Virus record (IMG/VR): IMGVR_UViG_3300001598_001791
Span: 14,432 to 78,431 of that record
DNA from: a virus
Lineage: Duplodnaviria; Caudoviricetes
DNA length: 64,000 bases
Strand: one strand, 5' to 3'
Position numbers and translations under genes: made by a program. Position 1 is the first letter of the stretch, and each line of letters starts with the position of its first letter. The notes under the pieces were generated by a model, which worked only from the letters and a program-made list of their open reading frames with translations, ran no database searches and was not told the DNA's origin. This document shows positions 6,668-59,134 of this stretch, in pieces.

Positions 6668-8587
6668 ATGACACCAAATGAAATAAATGTAGAAAAGGAA
6701 GAAATCTTTCAAAACATAAATTATAAAAATAGAGTAATATCAGAGCCAAGCCCTAGTAAAATACCTGATGTAGATACCAGGGGTAGTTTTTATGGATATC
6801 TCATGGACTCAGCTGAAACATCATCTCTTGATATTAATACTTTGAGCTCATTTACTTCAATTTCTAGATCTCGTGATAGTGTTTATACACTATTAGATGT
6901 TATGGCAGAAGACCCTATGATATCATCGGCTATTAAAATTTATGCAGCAGATGTATGTGAACCAAATGATCAAGGCCAAATAGTCTGGTGTAATTGTGAT
7001 GATCCAAGAATCTTAAATGAAGTAAATAATTTATTAGATTCGTTAAATGTTAATAAAAATTCTGTAGATTGGGTTACTTCATTAATTAAATATGGTGATA
7101 TGTATTTGAGATTGTATAGACAGTCAGATTTTAGATTATTTGATCGATACATGGATGAATTCAGGAGAAACCAAGATGACTATAAGAAAAAGAAACTTGA
7201 TGAGAATTACATCCCACCTGAAAGAAATACTTTAGAAGAAGATCTCAAACTATTTGATTATTCTAAAAATGACAGATATGCTGAGTATATGGAGTTGGTA
7301 AAAAATCCAGCACAAGTTTTTGATCTACAAAAATACGGCAAGTCATATGGTTACATTAAGACCACTACGGCACCAACTAACATCAGAAATGACTCTTTAC
7401 AACCTAGATTAGAAACAAGATGGAATTATAGATATGATCAAGATGATGTAGAAATATATGAAGCAACAGAATTTGTTCATGCTTGTTTGACTGATAATTC
7501 ATGTAGAACTGATGAGGAAATTTCATTAACAACTGGATCAAGTGGTACTACTGAAATTACTTTTAATGTAAGACGTGGACAATCTTTGTTATATAACTCT
7601 TTCAAAATTTGGCGCGAACTTACTTTATTAGAAAACGCTGTTTTATTAAATAGAATCACCCAATCATCACTTATTAGATGTGTAAACGTTGAAGTACCTG
7701 ATATGGATCAAAGTGAAGCTAAAAACATTTTAAGGAGAGTCAAGGGTTTATTTGAGCAAAAGTCGGCCTTGAATCTTGGAAATAATATGCAAGATTATAC
7801 AAATGCTGGCCCTATTCAAAATACAATTTATATTCCTACTCACAATGGAATTGGAAATATTTCTGTTACAAGTGTTGGCGGTGATGTTCAAGTAGGAGAT
7901 CTTACTGATTTAGATTATTGGAAAAATAAATTATCTGGATCATTAGGTATCCCGAAGCAATACTTAGGTGATACTTCCGATTCAACTGGTTTCAATGGTG
8001 GTAGTTCTTTAAGTATTATTTCAAGTAGATATGCCAAGACGGTAAAGTCAATTCAAAATATCTATTTACAATCTATTACAGATGCAGTTAATCTTATTTT
8101 ATTAGATAAGGGATTGCGTAATTATATAAATAAATTTACATTAAGAATGCAAGAACCTACTACACAAGAAGAAAAGGATAGAAGAGATAATCTTTCAACT
8201 CAATTAAATTCTATTAGAGAAATAATGGGGTTAGTTGAAGACATTGAAAATAGAAAGATTAAGCTAGAAATTCTTAAGTCATTGTTATCTAGTGCCTTAA
8301 ACAATGAAGATGTTGTACAATTAATTCAAGAAGAGATTGACTCAATTTCTGAAACTACTAATTCTACTAGAGATGAATTAGGCGACAGTGACTTTGATGA
8401 TATTAATTTTGAACCTAGTGAATCTGAAGGACCATCTCATATGGGAAATAGTGAACCTTCATCTCCTGTATCTTCTGCAGGTGAAAATGAAACACCTATT
8501 GAAACGGCAGAAGCCCCAGCTGCCGGCGGAGATGATTTCTTAGAAACTTTTGAAGAAATGGGAGTTTCTTATAGAAACGTCTTATAG
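6668..8587 (+). CDS. Portal protein (T4 gp20-like)
   Basis: 639 aa directly after terminase; LIKYGDMYLRL, LENAVLLNRITQS, LGIPKQYLG resemble T4-type portals; acidic tail. Confidence 0.8.
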   Translation: MTPNEINVEKEEIFQNINYKNRVISEPSPSKIPDVDTRGSFYGYLMDSAETSSLDINTLSSFTSISRSRDSVYTLLDVMAEDPMISSAIKIYAADVCEPNDQGQIVWCNCDDPRILNEVNNLLDSLNVNKNSVDWVTSLIKYGDMYLRLYRQSDFRLFDRYMDEFRRNQDDYKKKKLDENYIPPERNTLEEDLKLFDYSKNDRYAEYMELVKNPAQVFDLQKYGKSYGYIKTTTAPTNIRNDSLQPRLETRWNYRYDQDDVEIYEATEFVHACLTDNSCRTDEEISLTTGSSGTTEITFNVRRGQSLLYNSFKIWRELTLLENAVLLNRITQSSLIRCVNVEVPDMDQSEAKNILRRVKGLFEQKSALNLGNNMQDYTNAGPIQNTIYIPTHNGIGNISVTSVGGDVQVGDLTDLDYWKNKLSGSLGIPKQYLGDTSDSTGFNGGSSLSIISSRYAKTVKSIQNIYLQSITDAVNLILLDKGLRNYINKFTLRMQEPTTQEEKDRRDNLSTQLNSIREIMGLVEDIENRKIKLEILKSLLSSALNNEDVVQLIQEEIDSISETTNSTRDELGDSDFDDINFEPSESEGPSHMGNSEPSSPVSSAGENETPIETAEAPAAGGDDFLETFEEMGVSYRNVL

Positions 8588-11455: not shown

Positions 11456-14400
11456 ATGGCAAAAAACTTATTAGAAGACTACAAAGGTAGACTTTCTGTT
11501 AGATTTTAAGCAGCGTAGTGAAGTAATTTATTATGATGTTTCTTATTGTACCTAAATACAATACTTTAATCTACTGTCTCTAATAAGAGAAACAAACCTG
11601 GTGAATTCATGGAAAATCTAAAACTTAACGGGACCTCCCAACCCGGTTTTAGACAATCATGAGCCAAGCCCATTCGGGAAGGTGCAACGACTATCGAAAT
11701 GGTAGTTTAGGAGAAAAACCTAAATAAGAACAAAGTAGAGTACATCTAATTAGGTGGAAGTACCAGGGTCCTTATAAAGGATAAAACAACATAAGGATAT
11801 GATATAGTCTGATCTCCGTGGTGACATGGAGTTAACACAAATGTTCTGAAAAATTCTATGGCGACCGTAATGAAGGCGCTAAGATGGGAAACGCTAAAAA
11901 ACTTTTAACTGCTCAATGTTTAGACAATGTAGCTAAATATTTAAATGAGGCATTCACAATGACTGCAGGAACACAAAGAGGCGATTTAGGCGCTTTCAAA
12001 GTTTTCTGTATGGACATTACTACATTAACAATGCCAAACCTTATTGTTAATGACTTATTTATGGTTCAACCAATGAGTTCATTCCAAGGTTATTAAAAAG
12101 TTATAGTAACCTAGCTGCTATAATAAAAAGAAGGCAGCTACAATAAACCTCATAAATTCATGGAAACTCCTTACCTTTCAGGACAATCATGAGCCAAGCT
12201 TTCAATTTCTCAGTTGAAAGAAGGTGCAACGACTATCGAAATGATGGCTAGTAATAGCTAGAACAAAGTAGAGTACAATTCAAATGAATTGGAAAGATGA
12301 GGCTGCCAGAAATGGTAGATAATATAGTCTAAACTATATGGTAACATATAGAAAATATTTTGAGAAATTATTAATAAATGGCTACTGAGAAATAAAAAGC
12401 TTAAAATAATTTCAATGATTTATTTGTAATACAATTGTTAACTTACATGGAATATGCTTTAGCACCAGCTAAGGGTGGTGTTGCTGAAGGTACTGTTGTT
12501 CAAAATCCATTCCAATGGGCACCAATGACAGAAGCTAGAATGCAATACACTGGCGAAGCTGTTGTTGAAAAGATTGATGCTACTGGTGGTATTACCTTCG
12601 CTTGGGGACCAGTTGTTTATGGTAAAGCTGAAGACATCAGAGTTGAAGTAAACGGCGCTTACGTTCCAGTTCCAGCTGACAGACTAGTTAAAGATGCTAA
12701 TGGTAAAGTTATTGGTATCGCTGCTGGTTATATGGCTGAAGGTACAAGAGTTGCTTATAGATATGACAACCAATTAATCCCACAAGAAAAACTTCCTGGC
12801 ATCAAAGGCCAAATGAAGGGTATCGCATTAGTTGCTAAAGCAAGAAGAATTGGTATTGAATATTCACAATTCGCGGCTTAACTCAAGATACAAATCTTGA
12901 AAAGGTCCCTTACACAGTAATGTGTATTGAATAACCTATTTAATTGCTGGGAAACCTTTATAGCTAACTAAACTACAACGCAATTTGAAAAGATAATCGT
13001 GAAAGTTTTAAAATTAGTTAGATTAGGCAATCAGCAGCGAAGTTCCTTTAAAATGGAAAACGTTCAACGACTATCACCGGCGGGTGAGTAGATATTATGT
13101 AATATCAAAATAATAGGTATTTTTAAATCAAAAAAATAAATTATGGAAAAGAAAAAGAGAATTCCTTGAAACAAGGGTCTTACAAAAGAAACAGATCTAA
13201 GGGTTGCTAAGGGAGCTGAAAATACTAAAAACACAGTATTATCTAGATACGGTGTTAGTAATATATTTCAGTCAAAAGAAGTACTTGATAAACTTTCTGC
13301 AGATAGACATTCAGGTGAACTTGCAAGAAGAGCAATGGACACAAAGAAGTTAAGATATGGCGATCCGAATTATAATAATATTGAAAAGAATCATCAGACT
13401 AAATTAGATAGATATGGTGATCCAAACTATAATAATCAAGATAAAAACTATGAAACAAGAAAAATAAACGGCACATTTAATACATCTAAACCAGAAGAAG
13501 AATTAAAACAAGAACTAGTAAATAAATACGGTGAGGAAGACGTAGAAGTTGAATATAGAGATCCTAGATACCATAATAAAGAAGGGTATAAATATAAATG
13601 TGATTTCTATGTTAAATCTGAGGATTTATTTATTGAACTTAATTACTGGCAAGGACACGGACCACATCCCTTTGATGAAAATAATGAAGAAGATTTGAAA
13701 TTATTGGTTAAGTGAGAAGATAAGGCTAATTCAGGATTACCTCAATACAAAAATTATATTTATGTATGAACTGTTGATGATCCTAATAAATTAAAATGCG
13801 CAAAGGAAAATAATCTTAATTATCTGATGATTTATAGGAATGGTTTAAAAATAAAGATATAGTCTCCTCTCTTACGAAAGTAAGAGGCAATAATTATTGC
13901 ATTATAGAGTAACGATCTATAATAAAGAAAAGGTTTCAAGCTAAGCAAGATTACGGCATGGACTTCGAAGCTACTATCGCTCAACAAGCCCAAGCTGAAT
14001 TAGAGTATGAAATTGACTCTGAAGCGGTATTCATGATCAAGAATGCTGCTGATGCATCAGCTCCAGTTGTTACTTGGGTTGATGAAGAATTGGATTAAGA
14101 AAAAAAAGTTTACATTTTCTTACAATTATTGTTACATTTATTATAAAGATAATGGAAATGATATAAGAAGATGTACTACATATTTTACATATTTATTTAA
14201 TAATAAAGAACATACTTATACTCCTGATTTTATTATAGGAGATGAATATGCTGATGTTAAAGGTACACATTTTATTAAAGATAACAGAATGATTAACCCG
14301 TATGATCGATCTTTAGATGATCAATATGAAGCAAAACATCAATGTATAATTAAAAATAATGTAAGACTTATTTTAGAAGAAGAAATAAATAATTGTAAAT

Positions 14401-17400
14401 TATTTGTAGACCAAGAATATGGTTGTAATTATATAAACCAATTTGAGGTGACTAAAGGTCCCTTAATATAGAAATATATTTAGAAAACGATGTGAATTTC
14501 TGGGACATCTTATATACTTGCATACATATATAAGACAATCAGAAGCCAAGCAAATAGAAATATTTGAAGGTTCAACGACTATCGAAAAGTTAGTTTAAGA
14601 GAAATACTGAAATGAGAACTTAGTAGAGTACACTTTAAGTAAAGTGGAAGCGCATCGAAACTTACAGAGGTTCAAACAATGTAAGTTTATGATATAGTCT
14701 GATCTTATAGGTAACTATAAGAAATTAGATGGAAACGATCTAATTGTAACATAAATGACAATCAGCTATTCAATGAAGGCTAAACCTATTTTGGTCTTGG
14801 CGTAAGTAATTACGTAAAAATATAAACCGCATTAACTCAGGGGAACTCCCACAGGGAAAATCCTGATCCGAGCCTCTACTGTAAGAGGAAGGTGCAACGA
14901 CTATCGAAAAGGTCATTAATAAGAAATATATTAATGAGAACTTAGTAGAGTACATCTCAAAAGAGATGGAAGTGTGCGGCAACCTAGAGAGGATAAAACA
15001 ATCTAGGCTGAAGATATAGTCTGAACTCTATAGCAATATAGAGAGAATTAAATTTAGTTTAAATATGAACAATATAGAAGAAAAACAAAAAAATCACGCT
15101 GGAGGTACTAAAGGTTTAAAGTACTACAATGAGTGTAATTACAACTGAACTCATGGAAATACTGAACTCATGGAAATCATGCATATGATTAAAATAATGA
15201 AGACGATCTTGAGAAGGTTGTTGAATGAGAAGATAAAGCCAATGAAGGAAAAAATTATTATAAGAATGCAATCTATACATGAACAATTTTGGATGTTCGT
15301 AAACAAAAGACTGCTAAAGATAATAATTTAAACTATATTGTTATATATAAATAATTGTTTAATTCGTAACATAATTGGAAGGCTTTGCTAGAGCTATCGA
15401 AAGAGCTAAAGCTCATGTTTATAAAGCAACTGGCAGATTTATGCCTAACTGGATTAAAAATCTTGAATTTTGTTGCTAAATTTATTGTATAATATAATAA
15501 ATAAGGCAATTTGGCATGAATGAACAAATAATAAAATTTTACAAAACACATACTGGTGCAAAAACTAGAAAACAATTTAGTTAATATATGGTAAAAATTA
15601 TTTAAAGTCATTCAAAATTTAAAGATATGTCCCTTATTAAAGAAATTTAATATAGAAAACCACGAGAATTCATGGAAACGCCTATTCACATTGGAGAGTG
15701 ATTAGGTCAATCATGAGCCAAGCCCATTCGGGAAGGTGCAACGACTATCGAAATGATATGCATATACTTAATATGCAGAGTAACAGAGTAGAGTAAGACT
15801 TAAGAAATTCTGAAGTACGTGGGATCTAGAAATAAAGTAATCTAGATTATGATATAGTCTGAACTTATAAGTAATTATAAGAAAATAAACGGATTCGGTT
15901 TATTTGTAACACAATTGGTTAGTTTCTCCAGATATGATGACTATCCTTCCATTCGTTCCTGGTTTCGTTCATGCGAACAATGCTATTGCTAACGGACCAT
16001 ATGTTGCTGGAAATGTTGCTGGAATGAAAGTTATCGTATCACCAGCTTTAGGTAACAAAGTTTGTTACTTAGGTGTTTTGGGTGCAGATGGCAAGACTGC
16101 TGTTGGTGTATATGCTCCATTAAAAAATTATGCTTTCGCATAATGATTACAGTGGCCTTAAACAGAGATGTTTAAGTGAAAACAAATTTAATTGCTGGAA
16201 AGTCCTTAGAGCTCTTTTGGCTACAACGAAAGAAGTAATTCTAATCGTGAAAGCTTAAAAACAAAAGAGATTGGATAATCAGCAGCTAAGTTACTTATTT
16301 ATGAAAACATATTTATTTAGGTATATTGGTAGGACAGTGGGTTGCAAACCATTTTCTATTACTCCTAATAATAGAATTACTACCTATATATAAATTTAAT
16401 TTTAGAGGATTATATTTTGTATGGATATGTTTATTTAACTGAAAATTTAATAAGTAAAAAGTTCAACGACTAAGGGGTAGCACCCTGTAATAATCAAATG
16501 ATTATGAAAGAGTTTGCATCTTATCCTAAATAAGATGATAATATAGTCTCTTCTCTATAGAAATATAGAGCTACAAATTGTAGTAGTTAAAGTAATGAAT
16601 TAACTAAAAGATAAAAGATATGCCAATCGTCCCAACTCAATTATTAGGCTTTGCTGATGGCACTATGAGCCAAGGTTTGACAATCGCGACATGGCAGTTC
16701 GCGTAAGACCGTTTACTTAGCAATAAGTAAAATAAATCACATATTTAATTGCTGGAAAATCGTAAAGCTCACAAGCCTGAATGGTTACGAAAGTAGAAAC
16801 AAGTTGTGAGATATCTATATGGTGTAAACCTAAGTAGATGTAAATCGATAATCAGCTTCCAAGCTTCTGTTTAGAAGAAGGATCAACGACTATCCCCTAG
16901 TGGGAGTAGAGAAGAAGTCTTCTCGAAAAGGTATGCATCTTAAAAAGATGATGATATAGTCTATACTTTATTCGAAAGGTAAAGGAGAAATTATTTTGGG
17001 AAAAAGAACAAATTATATTAACCCTGATACAAAAGAAGTTATTTGATGTATTAGAGGTAATCAACCAGAAAACTGAGTTGAAATAAAACATTTTAAAAAG
17101 GTAGATGAGTTAAAGAATACTATTTCTAAAGAAGAATTATTTATTTATTATATTATAGAAAATAATAATTTTATAACTACTGCTAAATATTTCAATATAA
17201 ATCCTGCAAATGTATTACATGATTTACTAAAATATTACGGTATACATAAAGATAGTGTTTCTTCTAGTAAAAATAATAAATATAAAAGATCAAAAGAAGA
17301 ATCCATTTTAGTTGGACAGAAATCTTCTTTAACACAAAAAGAAAAATGGAAAAATAAAAGCATTGAGGAAAAAGAAGAATATAAGGAAAAACAAAAAATA

Positions 17401-43338: not shown

Positions 43339-43506
43339 ATGGAAAAATACAAAGCAACAGACAGAATTGTGGCGTCAATAAAGCCAGACAACCCTCTAAT
43401 GAAACAACTAATTAGGTATTTAGAGGAAAATGACTACTCTATGACAAGTGTAGTTAAAAAAGCTTTGAAGATGTACCTTGACAGTGAGGAGAATAAACAA
43501 AAATAA
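43339..43506 (+). CDS. Small ORF inside the IS, possibly ribbon-helix-helix (55 aa)
   Basis: MEKYKATDRIVASIK...SMTSVVKKALKMYL; below track length cutoff. Confidence 0.4.
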   Translation: MEKYKATDRIVASIKPDNPLMKQLIRYLEENDYSMTSVVKKALKMYLDSEENKQK

Positions 43507-44008
43507 TTTTAAGTCAAGAAATCATTCAAAGTTTCTATTGCAATTTCATGTGATTTTAGTTTGTAAATACAGATTAAAATTATTGGATAGTAATGTTTCA
43601 ATCGAAATAAAAAAATTATCTGATGAAATTGTGCAAAAGCATGGTTGTTCTATTAAGTATGTTGAGTCTGATTTAGATCATATTCACTACTTAATAGAAA
43701 CATTGCCAACAACAAATCTTTCAAATCTAGTAAGAGTACTTAAACAATACACTACATATCACATTTGAAAAAGATTTGATTTTTCAAACTATTTATGAAA
43801 AGAACATACTTTTTGAACTGATGGCTATTTTATTAGCTCAATAGGTAATGTGTCAGAAATGACAATAAGAGAGTATATAGAAAACCAAGGGAGAAATCAT
43901 GGTCAAAAAACAAAGCATACAAATTTAAACTTGAACCAACTAAAGATCAAGCTATTTTGATCAATAAAACTTTTGGTTGTGTTCGCTTTATTTACAATAA
44001 AATGCTAG
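43478..44008 (+). CDS. tnpA: IS200-type Y1 (HUH) transposase
   Basis: FHVILVCKYR, DHIHYL (HUH), LW(TGA)KEHTFW(TGA)TDGYF, YIENQ; in code 4 it reads on to TAG 44006-44008, giving a ~36-aa atypical extension. Confidence 0.85.
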
Positions 44009-45028
44009 CTGACAAAAAAAGAAGCTTGAGAAAAAGATAAAATAAATTTAAAAGTTTCTCCAGCACAATATAAAGAAGAATTTGAATGGCTGTCTGAAGT
44101 AGATAGTCATGCACTTGGTAATGCTCAATTAGATTTGAATGCCGCATATTCTAATTTTTTCAGAGGACTCAAAAAGAAACAAAATATTGGATTCCCCAAA
44201 TTTAAGTCAAAGAAATTTTCGAAAAGAAGTTATACAACTAATATAGCGAATAAAGACTCAACATCAATAAGGCTTGAAGATGATCATTTCTTAGTTCTTC
44301 CTAAGCTAGGTAGAGTAAGATTTAGAAAATCTAGGGATGTTGTTGGTAAAATAAAATCAGCTACAATTTTTCAAAATGCAGTTGGAAAATACTTTGTAAG
44401 TATCTTAGTCGAATACGAATGAGAAAAACCAAATTATCAAATAAACTTAGAAAATTCAATTGGTCTAGATTATTCATCTCCTGATTTCTATGTAGATAAC
44501 TTTGGAAACTCTCCTGAAAAGATTAAATTCTTTAGAGAGTATGAAGATCAGTTAGCTAAAGAACAAAGAAAATTAGCAAACATGAAATTAAACTCAAACA
44601 ATTATCAAAAGCAAAGAAAGAAAGTTGCAAAAGTATATGAGAAGATAGCCAATTCTCGTTTAGATTTTTGTCATAAACTTTCTACACAACTTGCTAACCA
44701 ATATGATATTGTTTGTGTTGAAGATATAAATTTAAGAGCTATGTCTCAATGTCTTACTTTAGGCAAAGCAACTATGGACAATGTGTTTGGAATGTTTAGA
44801 TCTTTTCTACAGTACAAACTAGAAGATAGAGGTAAAGAATTTGTAAAGATAGACAAATGGACTCCAACATCTACGGTATGTTCAGTTTGTGGAACGTATC
44901 ATAAAGATATAGTCTCTAATCTCTCTGTTAGAGAATGGACATGTCCAGATTGTGGGACTATCCACAACAGAGATATCAACGCTGCTGAAAATATTAGATT
45001 AGCTGGAATTAGTTTACTCACAACATAA
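43899..45028 (+). pseudogene. tnpB: TnpB RNA-guided nuclease with two +1 frameshifts near the 5' end
   Basis: KAYKFKLEPT...FGCVRFIYN; RuvC motifs GLDY, VEDINL, RDINAA; zinc finger CSVC/CPDC; one extra A in each of the A runs at ~43905-43910 and 44014-44020. Confidence 0.75.
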
Positions 45029-53151: not shown

Positions 53152-54795
53152 ATGCCAATTATCCAAGAGAGTTTATTTGATTCATTTAGTGTTGATATGG
53201 ATAATACTAAAAATATTTTAACCAAATTAAAGTCACCTAAAAAGGTAAAAGAAGTAACTGTTGAAAAACAATTATCATCAAACGATGTTCCTTTTGATGA
53301 AAAATTAAGATTAGTAACAACTGAAGTAAACCGCATTTTGGGCCATTTCAAAGATGATACTATCTGCATCTATGATTATAGTGAATTAGAAAAATATATT
53401 GATAAGGCAATTCAAAATGGTGTTATTTCAGTAGATACAGAAACTATTGGTACTCGTGATGATATTGATAAACCTGCTACTGATGCGTATACTTGTAAAT
53501 TAGCTGGACCATGCCTTTATACACCGGGTATGAAAAATGCTTATATTCCAATAAACCATGTAGATCCTTATACTAATATTCGTTTAGAGAATCAATTATC
53601 AGAAGATCAGTTAACTGTCCAATTTAAAAGATTAGTTAATAATAAGGTAAAGGTAATTTATCATAATGGTAAATTCGATTATAAAGTATTATATTATACT
53701 TGTGGTGTTAAATTACCTATTTACTGGGATACTATGATCGGTGCTCAGATACTAAATGAAAATGAACAAGCAGGCCTTAAGTTTCAATATAAAGATAAAA
53801 TTAATCCAGAACAAGAGAAATATAATATTGAGAAATTATTTAACGTAGAAATGTTTCCTAAATACCCACCTGAATTGTTTGCTTTATATGCTGCTACTGA
53901 TGCCTATGAAACATATAAATTATACGAATATCAGAAGAGTCAATATGAAAAACGGGGAAACGAGAGACTATACAATTTATTTTTAAATATTGAGATGCCT
54001 GTAGTAACAGTTGTCTCTGAGATGGAAATACGTGGAGTAGGTCTTGATAATGAATTTGCACAAAGATTAAGCAAAAAATTCCATTTGAAACTTGATGATA
54101 TTAATCACGCTATTGAAGTTGAAATGGGTAAATATAGAGAGATAATTTCTGAGTGGAGATCTTCGTCTTCAGCAAATTTCCATCCGACCAAAAATGGTAA
54201 ACAACAGAAATCTATGAATGAACAGTTATCAGATCCAATTGAATTGACTTCATCAATTCAATTAGGAATATTCTTATATGATATTCTTCAAGTATTAAAG
54301 GTTGATAAAGACGGTAAAAAAGTTGTTGATGAAGCAACATTACTTATTATAAAAGATAAATTACCATTAATTAATTTAATCCTAAGGAAAAGAGAATATG
54401 AAAAATATCTTGGTACTTATATTGACGCGATACCATTGGTTGCTAGCCCAAGAGATGGTCGAATTCACCCAAAATTTAATCAACTAGGTCGAGAAGATAA
54501 AAATGTTGTTACCGGAAGATTTAGTTCAACTTCACCAAATTTCCAAAACATCCCAGCCAGAGGTCAAATAACTTCAGTAAGGTGTATGTTTGTTCCTACT
54601 ATAAATTATAATGAATTTAATAAACAAAATAATGGGTTATATGAGATACCTGTTGAAGAAGAATGTTTAATGGCTGATGGCTCATATAAATGGGTATCAG
54701 AACTGCAAGTTGATGATATACTCGATGGCGGTGAAATAGTTAAAAGTATTGGTAAAAGTACAACAGGTAGATTAATTAGAGTGGAGGTAGCTTAA
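53152..54795 (+). CDS. polA: Family A DNA polymerase, N-terminal part (3'-5' exonuclease, thumb, start of palm) with a Hint-like C-terminal appendage
   Basis: Exo DTET, HNGKFD, YAATDA; TGRFSSTSPNFQNIP; VRCMFVP, then LMADGSYKWVSELQVDDIL and a stop. Confidence 0.88.
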   Translation: MPIIQESLFDSFSVDMDNTKNILTKLKSPKKVKEVTVEKQLSSNDVPFDEKLRLVTTEVNRILGHFKDDTICIYDYSELEKYIDKAIQNGVISVDTETIGTRDDIDKPATDAYTCKLAGPCLYTPGMKNAYIPINHVDPYTNIRLENQLSEDQLTVQFKRLVNNKVKVIYHNGKFDYKVLYYTCGVKLPIYWDTMIGAQILNENEQAGLKFQYKDKINPEQEKYNIEKLFNVEMFPKYPPELFALYAATDAYETYKLYEYQKSQYEKRGNERLYNLFLNIEMPVVTVVSEMEIRGVGLDNEFAQRLSKKFHLKLDDINHAIEVEMGKYREIISEWRSSSSANFHPTKNGKQQKSMNEQLSDPIELTSSIQLGIFLYDILQVLKVDKDGKKVVDEATLLIIKDKLPLINLILRKREYEKYLGTYIDAIPLVASPRDGRIHPKFNQLGREDKNVVTGRFSSTSPNFQNIPARGQITSVRCMFVPTINYNEFNKQNNGLYEIPVEEECLMADGSYKWVSELQVDDILDGGEIVKSIGKSTTGRLIRVEVA

Positions 54796-54805
54796 GTTCA
54801 AAAAG

Positions 54806-54928
54806 ATGATTAAAGATAATAAAGTTACCCGAGCCAAAAAAGAAGAAATAGATAAATATTTACAAGAAGGATACAAATTTGTATCCAAGAAAGGTGGTGA
54901 TATAAATGAAAAGTCTAAAAACTCGTAG
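54806..54928 (+). pseudogene. Possible endonuclease-gene remnant between the PolA halves (40 codons)
   Basis: MIKDNKVTRAKKEEIDKYLQEGYKF resembles C-terminal tails of homing endonucleases; position mirrors the GIY-YIG gene in the terminase. Confidence 0.35.
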
Positions 54929-56348
54929 AAGATATCAACTTCTAGGTGCAGACTTTTCCTAAAGTCTGCTCAGGAAGTTAAGGTATTTGCACAAACATGT
55001 GGTGATGAAACTCTATTGTCAGCCTTAATGGCCGGAAAAGATTTATATTCAGAGGTAGCTTCGAGTGTTTATAATATGCCATATTCTGAGTGTTGTGAAT
55101 TCAGACCAGATGGAACCTTTAATTTAGAAGGTAAACAACGACGAACTAAGTCCAAGAGTATTGTATTGGGTTAATTTTTGTACTCTTGGACTAAAACATT
55201 AAGCCCCTTCACATAGTAATATGTGTCGAATAACGATGTGAACTGCGATTACAAGCAGGTGTCTAAAGATAAGAACAAATAACTTTAGGCTAACGGCAAA
55301 AGCTTATTATTAAGTTAAAGTTAATGCCGTGCTAAGATTTTATTAACAGTGAAATAAAGTGTATCGACTAACTCTGATGAATGTAAGAGTGTAAGGTGGA
55401 GATGTTACCATTTGAAGCGCATCGCAACCATATGGTTGATGAAATAGTCAGTACTATTAGGAATAATAGATAATTACGTTAATGTATGGGCGTGGTACTA
55501 GTTCTATTGCAGAACAGATCAAATCTCACCCAGGCCCGGTAACCAAAGAGGATAAAGAGGAAGCAAAAGCTATTGTTGATAATTTCTTTACTAACTATCC
55601 CGGTGCTAAGGAATGGGTAGAAAGAATGCATAAACAAGCTAGAGAAATTGGGTATGTTGAAGATATTTGGGGTAGAAGAAGAAATTTACCTGATGCTTCC
55701 TTACCTAAATATACTTTTGAATCTATAGAGACAGACTCAAGTAGTTTTAACCCATTAATTGACTCACCTTTAGTTATAAAGGAAGTTAGCCAAAACATCA
55801 TTGATAAGTATTCTCAATTACTTGATAAAACATTTAGTGTGGAGAAAAGGAAAGAAATTATTGATGATGCCCTAAGATATGATAAAGTAAAAATTACTAA
55901 TAATAGTGGTTTTATTGCTCAAGCAGAAAGACAAAGCCAAAATTCACCAATACAGGGTGGAGCAGCTACTATGACAAAAATTGGTATGCGTGATATCCAC
56001 TTTGATAAAGAGTTAAATGACCTTGATCTTCACTTATTAATTCCTGTTCATGATGAAGTTATTGCTGAGGCTCCACTTTGGAATATTGAAGAAGCTAAGA
56101 AGAGAATGTTTTATCTAATGTGTAATGCTGGGAAACCTGAGTTTAAATTACCAATGAAATGTGATGGTGATGACTGGTCAAGATGGTATCTAGATGTTTG
56201 TGGACAACATATTAGAGATGAATATCAAGAAAGTATTAAGAGTGGGTGTGCTCCGGAAGTAGCTTTCCAAGATGTTTATGAGAATAATTGTGAATTTACA
56301 GAAGATCAGATAAAGTTAATTTTAGAAGATAATAAACGTGATGTTTAG
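54906..56348 (+). CDS. polA: Family A DNA polymerase, C-terminal part (motifs A, B, C; 375 aa from segments 54906-54959, 54968-55171, 55479-56348)
   Basis: RBS GGTGG; LLGADFS[8 nt]AQEVK (motif A); RTKSKSIVLG|LMYG (motif B across intron); AERQSQNSPIQG; VHDEV (motif C). Confidence 0.82.
54948..54969 (+). other. Stop-containing 8-nt insertion in a 9-bp hairpin within PolA motif A
   Basis: GCAGACTTT-TCCT-AAAGTCTGC; reading GAC TTT TCC TAA AG TCT GCT CAG GAA. Confidence 0.85.
55172..55478 (+). ncRNA. Group I intron in PolA motif B (307 nt, no ORF)
   Basis: Exon ends GGT, intron starts TAA and ends ATTACG; core GTGAACTGCG, AATGCCGTGCTAAG, TATCGACTA, GAAATAGTCAG; splicing gives VLG-LMYG. Confidence 0.85.
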
Positions 56349-56422
56349 TTTACAATATTCATTATATATGATAATATAGTTATGAAGATAAGAATATATT
56401 CTTGAGGAGGATTTTTACAGTT

Positions 56423-56949
56423 ATGAATATCGTTATATACGGTTGCGATAACTGTGGTTAAGTAAGACCACATTAGCAGAATTTCTAGAAGATGAGTTAT
56501 GCGGTAAACAAGTTCATAGCTTAGGTAATGTCTCGATTGAAAAACAGGTAGAATTTATGAATAATGAACTTTTACCAAAAGGAAGTACTTCTATTAAAAT
56601 ATTTGATAGATTCCCCATTATTGAAGAGGAAGTATATGGTAATCTTTTGCGTGGTGGAAGTAAATATGATTCAGACCCTGACTTCAAAAAAGAAATGTTA
56701 GATAAAATTGATTTATTTATCTACGCATACCCTGGATTACTATCAACTTTAAATTGGAATAACCGAGAACAGATGGATGGTGTAATTGAAAACGTAATTA
56801 AAATTATAAATGAGTATAATAAGATTACTTATAGTTTTATAACTGAAAGATCAGTTATTGAGTTTAATTATAATGAAGATCCTTATTATATGAAGATATC
56901 AAAAAAGATAAAGGAGTTTATTAATGAACACAATCGATGTGAAATATAA
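56423..56949 (+). CDS. dNMP (thymidylate-like) kinase, 173 aa, requiring removal of a 5-nt insertion at 56459-56463
   Basis: RBS GAGGAGG; MNIVIYGCDNCG[TAAGT]KTTLAEFL; FDRF motif; track ORF 56557 is only the distal part. Confidence 0.8.
56453..56472 (+). other. Stop-containing 5-nt insertion in a hairpin within the kinase P-loop
   Basis: TGTGGT-TAAGTAAG-ACCACA; reading TGT GGT TAA GT AAG ACC ACA. Confidence 0.85.
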
Positions 56950-57541
56950 TAATGACATAGATAGTTGGAATACCTTATTTAAGTTAGCTAGAGAACAATT
57001 TTTAAATTATGAAAAAATTGAGGGTATTGAAAATTGGGATGAATATGATTTCTCAATAGATTGCTCATCTGATCAAATGAAATTTAAAGATATGCTTCAG
57101 ATTAGATTTATTGAAGAATTAACAGAGTCATCAATTGCTTTACATGAATCAGAGGAACACTTCTGGGAAGAAATAGGTGATTCTTTAAATTTTTTCTTAT
57201 CAGCTATGATTATGCTTGGAGTTGATCTTGACTCAATGGAATCACCGGATCATTTTCTTTCGACATACTCACTGAGAATTGTTCCTGATCCAGATTCTTT
57301 TGGCCTATCAGCCTATACAGTAATTGAGTCAGTTGGTTACTTATGCAATTTATTAAAAAATAGACCTTGGGCACAAAGTAATTATTTAGTTTCTATGTAT
57401 GACTTTGATGAAAGACTTAGAAAGTTGTGGTGTATTTTCTGGGGGTTTATGGGTGATTTAGGTCTAATTAAAGAAAATGTATTCGAGATATTCTGAAAAA
57501 AATTTAAAGTAAATGAACATAGAATGTCAACAAATTATTAA
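56924..57541 (+). CDS. Dimeric all-alpha dNTP pyrophosphatase (dUTPase-2 / T4 gp56 dCTPase-like; 205 aa, code 4)
   Basis: EELTE, EEIGDSLNFF, KNRPW, W(TGA)KKFKVNEHRMSTNY. Confidence 0.7.
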
Positions 57542-57554
57542 AAGGAGTAGATAG

Positions 57555-58301
57555 ATGAGAACTTATAAAACTATTAGGGAATCACTTGATGAAACAGCTA
57601 GAGACCTTTTAGTCCGTGGGATTACTGTTGAATGCAAATCTTATCAAGATAAAATCCTTGAGGGGAATGACCGTTTCGTAAAGGAGTTAATGGGTGTTGA
57701 CTTTATGATCTCAAAACCTATGTTAGGTTGGAGAGAAGCAGTACAATACTTATTTAAAACTGATGAAGAAACAGATAAAATCCTTAAATATTGCGAACAA
57801 GAAATTAAAGATAGGACATCTGGTGAAATGCTAAATCCAGGTAATTCATATAAAATTAGAGGTGATTATTGGTCTAATTTCTTAGAAGGTAATAATAAAT
57901 TTAGTTATCAGTATGCAGAAAGATTGTGGACAAATAATCAATTTGGATCTGTAATTAATTGTTTAAGAAATGATCCAGGAACAAGACAAGCAGTATTATC
58001 GGTTTGGTACCCAGAATTAGATATGAATTCAGAAAAATTGGGTGGTGGTAATAGAATACCTTGTTCTTTAAATTACCAGTTCATGATTAGAAATAACCGA
58101 TTACATTGTATTTATCATATGAGAAGTTCTAATTTCTTTGAACATCTACCAATTGATTTAATTTGTGCTGCTGGGATGATGGATTATATTGTTAAACAAT
58201 TAAAAGATACTTACCCTGATTTACAGGTAGGAAGTCTTTCTTATCTCGGTGGGAGTTTGCACGGATTCCAATGGTCACTATCTAAATTCGTTTTATTTTA
58301 A
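57555..58301 (+). CDS. Thymidylate-synthase-fold enzyme, dCMP hydroxymethylase-like
   Basis: TRQAVL, catalytic PCSLNYQF, MRSSNFFEHLPID with Asp where ThyA has Asn (LPFN). Confidence 0.65.
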   Translation: MRTYKTIRESLDETARDLLVRGITVECKSYQDKILEGNDRFVKELMGVDFMISKPMLGWREAVQYLFKTDEETDKILKYCEQEIKDRTSGEMLNPGNSYKIRGDYWSNFLEGNNKFSYQYAERLWTNNQFGSVINCLRNDPGTRQAVLSVWYPELDMNSEKLGGGNRIPCSLNYQFMIRNNRLHCIYHMRSSNFFEHLPIDLICAAGMMDYIVKQLKDTYPDLQVGSLSYLGGSLHGFQWSLSKFVLF

Positions 58302-58303
58302 TT

Positions 58304-59134
58304 ATGATCTATTTAAAATATAAAGACTTTACTCAATTATATTATGAATTATCAAGATTTCCCTTAACCGATCCAAAATCAACAGATTTCTTTACTATAG
58401 GTGCATCAATTTATGTAAATAACTTAGTTATAGAAACTGAATCTCATGATCTAGTAGGGCCAGCTTCAGACTTAGGAAATTTTAATTATACCATTTCTAA
58501 GTGGACTACTCTTCTAAATAAGTATGTTGATCCAAAAGATTATAGTGACCTAAAAACACGTCTTACTTGGTCTACTTGTAAAACAGTTACTTTTAATTTT
58601 AAAATACATGTAGCCATGCCGACCGATACAGATCAAACTAAAAGTAGAGATTCTTGTATTATTGCTATGGTTTTTAGTAGAAATGGTACTAAAGGTAAAT
58701 GGACTCATGTAAATGTTTATTGGAGAGCCCAAGAGATATATCAGAAAGGTGCAGCCGACTGGATCTTACTGAATAGAATATTTGAAGACCTTCCTAATTT
58801 AGATTTAAAACACTATTGTTTTCATATAGCCCAGCCATTTTGGAGTACATTTAAACTATGTGAATTGATAGATAGCCCTTTATTTAGTGTTGAAGAATTT
58901 AAAGATTCATCCTCTTTTCTAGGTAGGAAATTATACGCTCATTACCTGAGATATTATGGGCCTGGTGCTGAATTATCCAATTTTCATGCGATAAGAAGAA
59001 AACAAGAAATGAAACTTAGTGGTAAAGTTAATAAATCAATTCCATTGGAATCATTGGTGTTACCTTCACCATTAAAAGAAGAATACGATTTAAAAACTAT
59101 TCCTACTGAAGTGATTCAAACATCACTTTGGTAG
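58304..59134 (+). CDS. Second, divergent thymidylate-synthase-fold-like protein
   Basis: SCIIAMVF...VNVYWRAQEIYQKGAADWILL parallels the PC...RS.D...N/D segment; weak, by eye. Confidence 0.35.
   Translation: MIYLKYKDFTQLYYELSRFPLTDPKSTDFFTIGASIYVNNLVIETESHDLVGPASDLGNFNYTISKWTTLLNKYVDPKDYSDLKTRLTWSTCKTVTFNFKIHVAMPTDTDQTKSRDSCIIAMVFSRNGTKGKWTHVNVYWRAQEIYQKGAADWILLNRIFEDLPNLDLKHYCFHIAQPFWSTFKLCELIDSPLFSVEEFKDSSSFLGRKLYAHYLRYYGPGAELSNFHAIRRKQEMKLSGKVNKSIPLESLVLPSPLKEEYDLKTIPTEVIQTSLW

Follow-up and report, generated by a model that had tools for sequence, protein, structure and literature searches.

For decades, T4 gene 60 was to our knowledge the only natural case of translational bypass; later additions were the byps of yeast mitochondria and the 10-nt gaps in phage Hau3. 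Here, we analyzed a 64,000-nt stretch of phage DNA (in the following called the window; bases 14432–78431 of the 78.4-kb IMG/VR record IMGVR_UViG_3300001598_001791), in which five nucleotides opening with an in-frame stop codon separate the glycine from the lysine in the P-loop of a kinase gene. From sequence comparison, and with somewhat better than even confidence, we suggest that the ribosome crosses this gap by a programmed short hop (stop-hop), of +5 in the window and of +4 in relatives in which the gap reads TAGC. The kinase gap would then be among the shortest natural bypasses of the T4 gene 60 type.

Several features of the described systems are relevant for the comparison with this locus. 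The take-off stem-loop of gene 60 includes the take-off codon and the sequence 5′ of it (PMC5009743), and some gene 60 homologs keep the bypass after the loss of the endonuclease (10.1101/2022.08.31.505936; PMC5009743). Re-pairing in the P site is not proofread, and its latitude has been documented (Manning & Atkins 2022, 10.1101/2022.08.31.505936). Synthetic stop-hops and forward hops of +5 and +6 in E. coli trace back to Weiss et al. 1987 (cited in PMC5009743 and PMC10732093); as of a 2016 review, no natural in-frame stop-hop was known (PMC5009743). Bypass of the 10-nt gap in Hau3 was shown by mass spectrometry in E. coli, using a construct in which UAA replaced the native UUA (PMC10732093). 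Our full-text literature searches returned no report of natural 4–8-nt gaps in phage polymerase or kinase genes.

The kinase interruption lies at the junction of strand β1 and helix α1, where the Walker A motif GxxxxGK[ST] is restored solely by skipping the five nucleotides (Table 1). The gap consists of the in-frame stop codon TAA (56459–61) followed by GT (56462–63), and a putative landing triplet, AGT, is found at 56461–63. The coding piece downstream of it lies in a different frame from the upstream piece, which is nucleotide-identical to that of the related locus L007. An earlier note on this DNA, made from the letters alone, had described TAAGT as a micro-insertion that splits the Gly-Lys pair of the P-loop behind a good ribosome-binding site and an ATG, and had stated that its removal restores the loop. 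Our reading bears this out. The Shine-Dalgarno sequence and the ATG at 56423 are in place, and deleting the five nucleotides yields G-C-D-N-C-G-K-T-T, matching the unbroken G-x-D-N-x-G-K-[ST]-T loop of ~90 homologs. The alignment of homologs that the note had proposed as a check showed that the Gly and Lys flanking the gap (G12 and K13) are invariant across 40 diverse full-length proteins. Logan contig L006 (run SRR1221442), an independent assembly, has the same bases across the site, confirming the 5-nt interruption as a genuine insertion and not an assembler artifact. The IMG/VR record contains one copy of the kinase gene. We found no uninterrupted near-identical allele in the protein collections searched (5.8 billion clusters), in which the best full-length relative was 66% identical.

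Table 1 Features of the interrupted kinase and PolA genes, in positions of the window.
Feature	Position	Strand	Remarks
Kinase Shine-Dalgarno sequence GAGGAGG	56404..56410	+	Read directly; kept in L007 with spacer TTT(T/A)TACAGTT
Upstream coding piece of the kinase, 12 codons (MNIVIYGCDNCG); strand β1 and first half of Walker A	56423..56458	+	Matches the N-termini of intact homologs
Proposed take-off codon GGT (invariant Walker A Gly)	56456..56458	+	GGT in five of five interrupted lineages
Coding gap TAAGT	56459..56463	+	Missing from ~90 homologs
Downstream coding piece of the kinase, 161 codons and TAA (56947–49)	56464..56949	+	Resumes at the Walker A Lys codon AAG (AAG ACC ACA)
Predicted hairpin UGUGGUU-AAGUAA-GACCACA, holding take-off codon, gap and resume codon	56453..56472	+	−8.6 kcal/mol, z = −3.2
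First codons of the C-terminal PolA gene (MKSLKTRRRYQLLGADFS), up to and including TCC (54957–59), the proposed take-off codon	54906..54959	+	
PolA motif A gap TAA AG TCT (8 nt, with TCT as the landing codon)	54960..54967	+	18 codons after ATG 54906
Perfect 9-bp predicted hairpin GCAGACUUU-UCCU-AAAGUCUGC around the PolA gap	54948..54969	+	−12.9 kcal/mol

To compare this site among relatives, we gathered kinase genes via the neighboring PolA gene, with an alignment query and by protein searches. A related-locus search with a single kinase protein as query gave no match, and neither did a megablast search of 53–59.2 kb against GenBank phages. The GxDNxGK[ST]T loop is unbroken in L002–L004, L008 and ~35 other loci. 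A scan of metagenome contigs yielded 25 loci, of which all 24 covering the P-loop were uninterrupted (L027 begins downstream of it). Two truncated-looking proteins, P0080 and P0099, were found to come from genes that are uninterrupted and start with a codon other than ATG.

A gap at the same Gly|Lys junction was identified in five distinct lineages, the window and four others, from at least nine samples. The respective DNA was found behind odd gene-caller products, which were 128–130 residues long or started with ‘MVSKTT...’. With the gap in parentheses, the junction reads TGT GGT (TAAGT) AAG ACC ACA in the window, TGT GGT (TAGGA) AAG ACC ACG in L007, AGT GGT (TAGC) AAA ACC ACA in L009/L010, TGT GGT (TAGC) AAA ACC ACG in the 140-kb contig L011 and AGT GGT (TAGC) AAA ACC ACA in L049/L050. 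The L049 allele (P0023) is present on seven contigs from at least four samples. The interrupted lineages share only 46–75% protein identity. Every gap opens with TAA or TAG immediately 3′ of GGT, and in every lineage its skipping restores G-K-T-T. Because the 5-nt and 4-nt gaps need opposite frameshifts, a single frameshift direction cannot explain both, whereas one hop rule covers both. The earlier note had taken the insertion as something to be read across, with a hop as the main candidate, and the comparison supports this reading: four further lineages show a varying gap, a constant stop, intact halves and a predicted hairpin.

This hairpin holds the insertion in its loop, where the earlier note had placed it by the match of TGTGGT to ACCACA (Table 1). 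A GUGGUU-loop-[AG]ACCAC fold is predicted in all interrupted copies, with −7.4 to −11.4 kcal/mol and z down to −5.9, and in most of them GAUAAY/RUUAUC lengthens the stem. Analysis of five interrupted copies by RNAalifold independently returned the same hairpin. When 30 distinct P-loop regions were compared, the interrupted copies made up five of the six most stable folds; the uninterrupted genes, without this hairpin, had a median near −2 kcal/mol. One base pair covaries, being C-G (AAC/ACG) in L007 and L011 and U-A (AAU/ACA) in L009/L010 and L049, whereas the window has a mismatch at this position. Thr is encoded in the 3′ arm by ACC, a codon that accounts for only 9% of the Thr codons in the genome. 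The kinase hairpin is probably the recoding signal.

The PolA gene of the window is interrupted, too. Compared with the single 895-residue gene of L004, it is broken in three ways, by a gene split, an 8-nt gap and a 307-nt insert. At the split, the N-terminal part ends with TAA at 54793–95 and the C-terminal part starts with ATG at 54906. The gap follows in motif A, which holds the catalytic Asp, and the sequence there reads GAC TTT TCC (TAA AG TCT) GCT. At the same codon, L010 and L049 have GAC TAT TCT followed by (TAG TCA) and (TAG TCT), respectively. These stop-led gaps are 6 or 8 bases long and flanked by matched Ser codons (TCC>TCT in the window, TCT>TCA in L010 and TCT>TCT in L049). Each insert is complementary to the D-F or D-Y codons before it, and the predicted hairpins track this difference, with GCAGACUUU/AAAGUCUGC in one case versus (A)GACUA/UAGUC(U) in the other. 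Uninterrupted PolA genes show no comparable fold, and motif A is unbroken in L002–L004, L008, L051 and L055. A knock-out of PolA motif A is unlikely to be tolerated, and this gap is therefore our strongest argument that these genomes read across their gaps.

Both halves of the interrupted kinase gene were examined for signs of selection. The upstream 12–14 codons vary by lineage yet always read [ILV]x[FY]GxDNxG, and the downstream frame is open in all interrupted lineages. The ratio of nonsynonymous to synonymous divergence (dN/dS) was 0.23 between the window and L007 (dS 0.87) and 0.21 between the interrupted sisters L009 and L010 (dS 0.39). The 5′ block, from the spacer behind the ribosome-binding site to helix α1, is ~93% identical between the window and L007, compared with ~70% elsewhere. 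In L011, this block is 83% identical to that of the window and 66–71% to those of its own sisters, while the relation is reversed elsewhere. This pattern of identity indicates that a segment of ~60 nt moved laterally: judged by sequence, the gap and its flanks behave as a cassette that recombination has carried from one kinase lineage to another. Two of the five gap bases differ between the window and L007 cassettes versus four of ~85 flanking ones, with the stop and the length kept. The distribution of the gap is patchy and requires at least three to four gains or losses on a quick tree. No homing endonuclease was found next to the kinase or PolA gap, and there is no open reading frame (ORF) between PolA and the kinase gene in the window, L007, L010, L011 or L049.

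In the mechanism that we propose, the ribosome would start at ATG 56423 and make MNIVIYGCDNCG. Once GGU occupies the P site and UAA the A site, termination would be slow and the ribosome would stall. The peptidyl-tRNA-Gly would then release GGU while the mRNA moves ahead by 5 nt, or by 4 nt in relatives with TAGC, and tRNA-Gly would re-pair loosely with AGU through the second and third positions. AGU, AGC and GGA are each the first downstream triplet with a middle G and one further match to a GCC anticodon. Lys-tRNA would next read AAG (AAR in the relatives), resulting in one 173-residue kinase with a normal G-K-T-T. The hairpin would pair UGUGGUU with GACCACA past the resume codon, and its ACC would compete with the anticodon for GGU, similar to the take-off stem-loop in T4 gene 60. 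The gap may be kept to protect a nuclease target or to control dosage.

A broader version of this idea is speculative, and we consider it doubtful. It would regard the element as an endonuclease-less hop cassette of ~60 nt, composed of the spacer behind the ribosome-binding site, 12 codons, a stop-led gap of 4–5 nt and the hairpin, that moves between phage kinases. The hairpin would act as an anticodon mimic, in which ACC displaces peptidyl-tRNA-Gly and sets the resume point, and no matched landing codon would be needed. In concert with the PolA stop-hop, the cassette would place enzymes of DNA-precursor synthesis and replication under the control of release-factor activity in a host in which TGA encodes Trp.

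Several points weigh against a programmed hop. The landing triplet mismatches the take-off codon, being AGU in the window and AGC in the TAGC type, and only in L007 is it a Gly codon (GGA). The match thus extends to two of three positions outside L007, as the earlier note had observed for AGT and GGT when it judged the fit poorer than in PolA, in which the Ser codons are fully matched. The hairpin cannot form while both of its arms occupy the mRNA channel of the ribosome, and its 3′ arm must itself be decoded. Its covariation comes from five sequences and does not exceed that of shuffles. Since the 5′ cassette was apparently exchanged recently, a large share of the signal of purifying selection in the gene body may be older than the insertion. 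In none of the loci does a homing endonuclease lie beside the kinase gene, unlike in gene 60. The record is ~47% complete, and a second kinase or polymerase may be encoded elsewhere. The support comes from sequence comparison and predicted RNA folds.

Likenesses to and differences from the known systems help to place the proposed hop. As in T4 gene 60 and its MobA-associated context, the take-off codon encodes Gly, has a stop codon behind it and forms part of a stem-loop (10.1101/2022.08.31.505936; PMC5009743). Further shared traits are the insertion at an invariant catalytic residue of an enzyme of DNA metabolism and the patchy, recombination-driven distribution. The split of the PolA gene a few codons upstream of its gap resembles that between T4 genes 39 and 60. 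Unlike the 50-nt gap of gene 60, the kinase gap measures 4–5 nt, so that the landing triplet and the stop share bases. The 3′ arm of the kinase hairpin is coding sequence that is read afterwards, and the nascent peptide is 12 residues long, too short to carry a KKYK-type signal 25–30 residues back. Also in contrast to gene 60, we found neither a mini-Shine-Dalgarno sequence nor an adjacent endonuclease gene at the kinase.

The kinase site shares with the synthetic stop-hops the succession of a sense codon, a stop and a resumption few bases further on, with the peptidyl-tRNA proposed here to be retained, and would correspond to a +5 hop. The PolA sites of L010 and L049 (TCT TAG TCA/TCT) show the literal stop-hop layout, with 9 nt for one residue. 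Synthetic hops were engineered and of low efficiency, whereas the kinase and PolA sites are natural, recurrent and accompanied by a dedicated predicted hairpin. Like the terminase gene of the Streptomyces phage Hau3, the kinase is a phage gene with a short gap of natural origin, a Gly take-off (GWG junction peptide in Hau3) and flanking RNA structure; it differs in that the Hau3 gap is 10 nt long, its landing codon is proposed to be matched, and host group and gene are different. The byps of Magnusiomyces capitatus mitochondria are, as summarized in PMC5009743, likewise frame-breaking inserts that are corrected at translation and apparently mobile. According to the same summary, they differ from the kinase gap in being 27–55 nt long, numbering 81 per genome, relying on an unused A-site codon and residing in mitochondria.

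If confirmed, the kinase gap would indicate that a small local hairpin alone can program very short and precise forward steps of the ribosome. It would do so in the most conserved motif of the enzyme, with a landing triplet that overlaps the stop and is non-cognate. At ~35 nt and 12 codons from the start, the site would allow take-off and landing to be dissected in a compact system. There is also a consequence for annotation, because gene callers report such kinases and polymerases as truncated or split (130-residue or ‘MVSKTT...’ products), and essential phage genes are miscalled as broken. The lateral transfer of the cassette bears on the question why bypass elements exist, be it for the protection of nuclease targets or for regulation.

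Among the other explanations, a selfish scar deserves the most attention, although we consider it unlikely. Here, a recombining cassette with palindromic flanks would knock out kinases whose loss is tolerated, and the halves would be intact because the insertions are recent. The mosaic 5′ block common to non-sister lineages and the patchy distribution on the tree fit this scenario, and the kinase may be dispensable. Yet the sisters L009 and L010 are both gapped and have accumulated no further breaks at their divergence and dN/dS, and every variant retains the stop and a length that restores the frame. These genomes are also gapped in PolA motif A, where a knock-out is probably lethal. The covarying hairpin pair, within the limits given above (five sequences, not above shuffles), and the position of the kinase in a cluster of nucleotide-modification genes also argue against a scar. 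An artifact or a minority DNA variant, with the true or dominant genome lacking the 5 nt, is extremely improbable. That the window comes from a single metagenomic record would allow for it, but the independent Logan assembly is identical, equivalent gaps occur in the at least nine samples and with several assemblers, no uninterrupted near-identical protein appeared among the 5.8 billion clusters, and the insert is 5 nt long and lies outside any homopolymer.

The remaining explanations place the correction on the transcript or in a different movement of the ribosome. Removal at the RNA level, by which the hairpin is recognized on the transcript, 4–5 nt are excised and the ends rejoined, would fit the position of the gap, always in the loop of a conserved hairpin, and a genome rich in splicing elements, including the group I introns at 11.5–15.9 kb. 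We nevertheless regard it as very unlikely. Five nucleotides are too few for a ribozyme core, and we know of no bacterial or phage enzyme pair for such an excision and rejoining. The group I rules (5′ exon ending with U, insert ending with G) cannot both hold at the kinase gap, and a micro-intron was rejected on splice-site rules and size. At PolA, the removed bases would be the loop and part of the 3′ arm, not the loop, and the universal stop and the matched PolA Ser codons would have no role. A conventional frameshift, −1 (or +2) in the window and +1 in the TAGC relatives, appears similarly remote. In prfB-type +1 frameshifting, slow decoding of the in-frame stop allows the P-site tRNA to realign. 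Such a ‘shifty stop’ could promote slippage also at the kinase site, and the downstream frame is open from 56452. But prfB re-pairs at an overlapping +1 codon, stimulated by an upstream Shine-Dalgarno sequence, whereas the kinase needs +4 or +5 and no single direction fits, so that close relatives would have to shift in opposite directions. There is no X XXY YYZ slippery heptamer in C UGU GGU UAA, and re-pairing from GGU to UGG or GUU is poor. The −1 shift would add two residues to the P-loop, as the earlier note had calculated, and our reading gives G-L-S-K in this case. The inserted residues (G-L-S-K, G-L-G-K or G-S-K) would vary in both number and identity among the lineages, and they would push apart the invariant Walker A residues G and K. 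Two further candidates were discarded. Reading of the stop as a sense codon is ruled out by the change of frame at the gap. For termination followed by re-initiation, the first start codon that the downstream frame provides is ATG 56557, and a product without β1 and half of the P-loop would not be a kinase.

To characterize the kinase, we compared its sequence and predicted structure with known families. The downstream piece of the window matched PHROG 761 (‘thymidylate kinase’) with E = 2e-5; across this piece and the intact homologs, the matches ranged from E = 2e-5 to 4e-17. Curated thresholds in Pfam and NCBIfam were not reached, and the matches to PF02223 and TIGR00041 were sub-threshold. 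A structure model of the intact homolog P0004 (66% identical) had a predicted local distance difference test score (pLDDT) of 94.8, with a strand at residues 2–7 followed by a helix at 13–24, which places the G12|K13 junction at the tip of the modeled P-loop. This model matched thymidylate kinases, Bacillus subtilis YorR (template modeling (TM) score 0.71) and deoxynucleoside kinases with E = 5e-6 to 1e-4. In its modeled fold and its gene context, the protein is consistent with a P-loop kinase resembling thymidylate or deoxynucleoside kinases. Of the label ‘dNMP kinase’ in the earlier note, the P-loop kinase part is consistent with this result, while the family assignment lacks a match above a curated threshold.

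The region 3′ of the kinase (56924–59134) encodes a MazG-like pyrophosphohydrolase, which is 205 residues long provided that one TGA codes for Trp, a member of the thymidylate synthase family and a PHROG 34294 protein of no assigned function. This gene order is kept in L008, L010 and L049 and fits a modified-pyrimidine pathway.

Further variation was observed in the PolA region. The 307-nt insert at 55172–55478 lies between the codons for ...IVLG and LMYGRG; its 5′ exon ends with U and the insert ends with G, so it looks like a group I intron, although an Rfam search of the insert gave no match even at E ≤ 1. Its 3′ part is kept in L010 (about 560–850) and L007, and the L007 copy carries an ORF with NUMOD3 and HNH matches. 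In L008, the closest uninterrupted relative, PolA is encoded by two genes joined by an overlapping TAATG at 6826–6840, with no spacer and no motif A gap; the PolA split is hence older than the gaps or independent of them. Between the PolA halves, L049 (3116–3793) and L010 (3–293) have an ORF of 225 residues that does not encode a nuclease; its product has a hydrophobic N-terminal segment (by inspection a probable signal peptide or membrane anchor), an acidic Ser-rich linker and a 3D (MltA/RlpA-like) domain. The 110-nt PolA spacer of the window contains no remnant of this ORF.

The IMG/VR record is linear. The window has a GC content of 30%, and all its genes are on the + strand. TGA encodes Trp in many of them, and the long ORFs end with TAA or TAG in 23 of 23 cases. 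Neither the window nor the remaining 14.4 kb of the record yielded special tRNAs, such as those with an expanded anticodon, and an Rfam search of 54.6–56.7 kb at E ≤ 1 yielded nothing relevant. Five Rfam-supported group I introns lie within ~4.3 kb at 11556–15881. A crude scan of the window for gaps (open frames of at least 25 codons before the first ATG) flagged the PolA and kinase sites, the capsid exons and a frame change in an IS605 tnpB gene only. The latter belongs to an IS200/IS605-type element at 43454–45028, in whose tnpA gene the conserved Trp positions are TGA. The tnpB frame change occurs at an A8 run, GACAAAAAAAGAAG, at about 44012–44020, and could be due to transcriptional slippage, ribosomal slippage or a broken gene.

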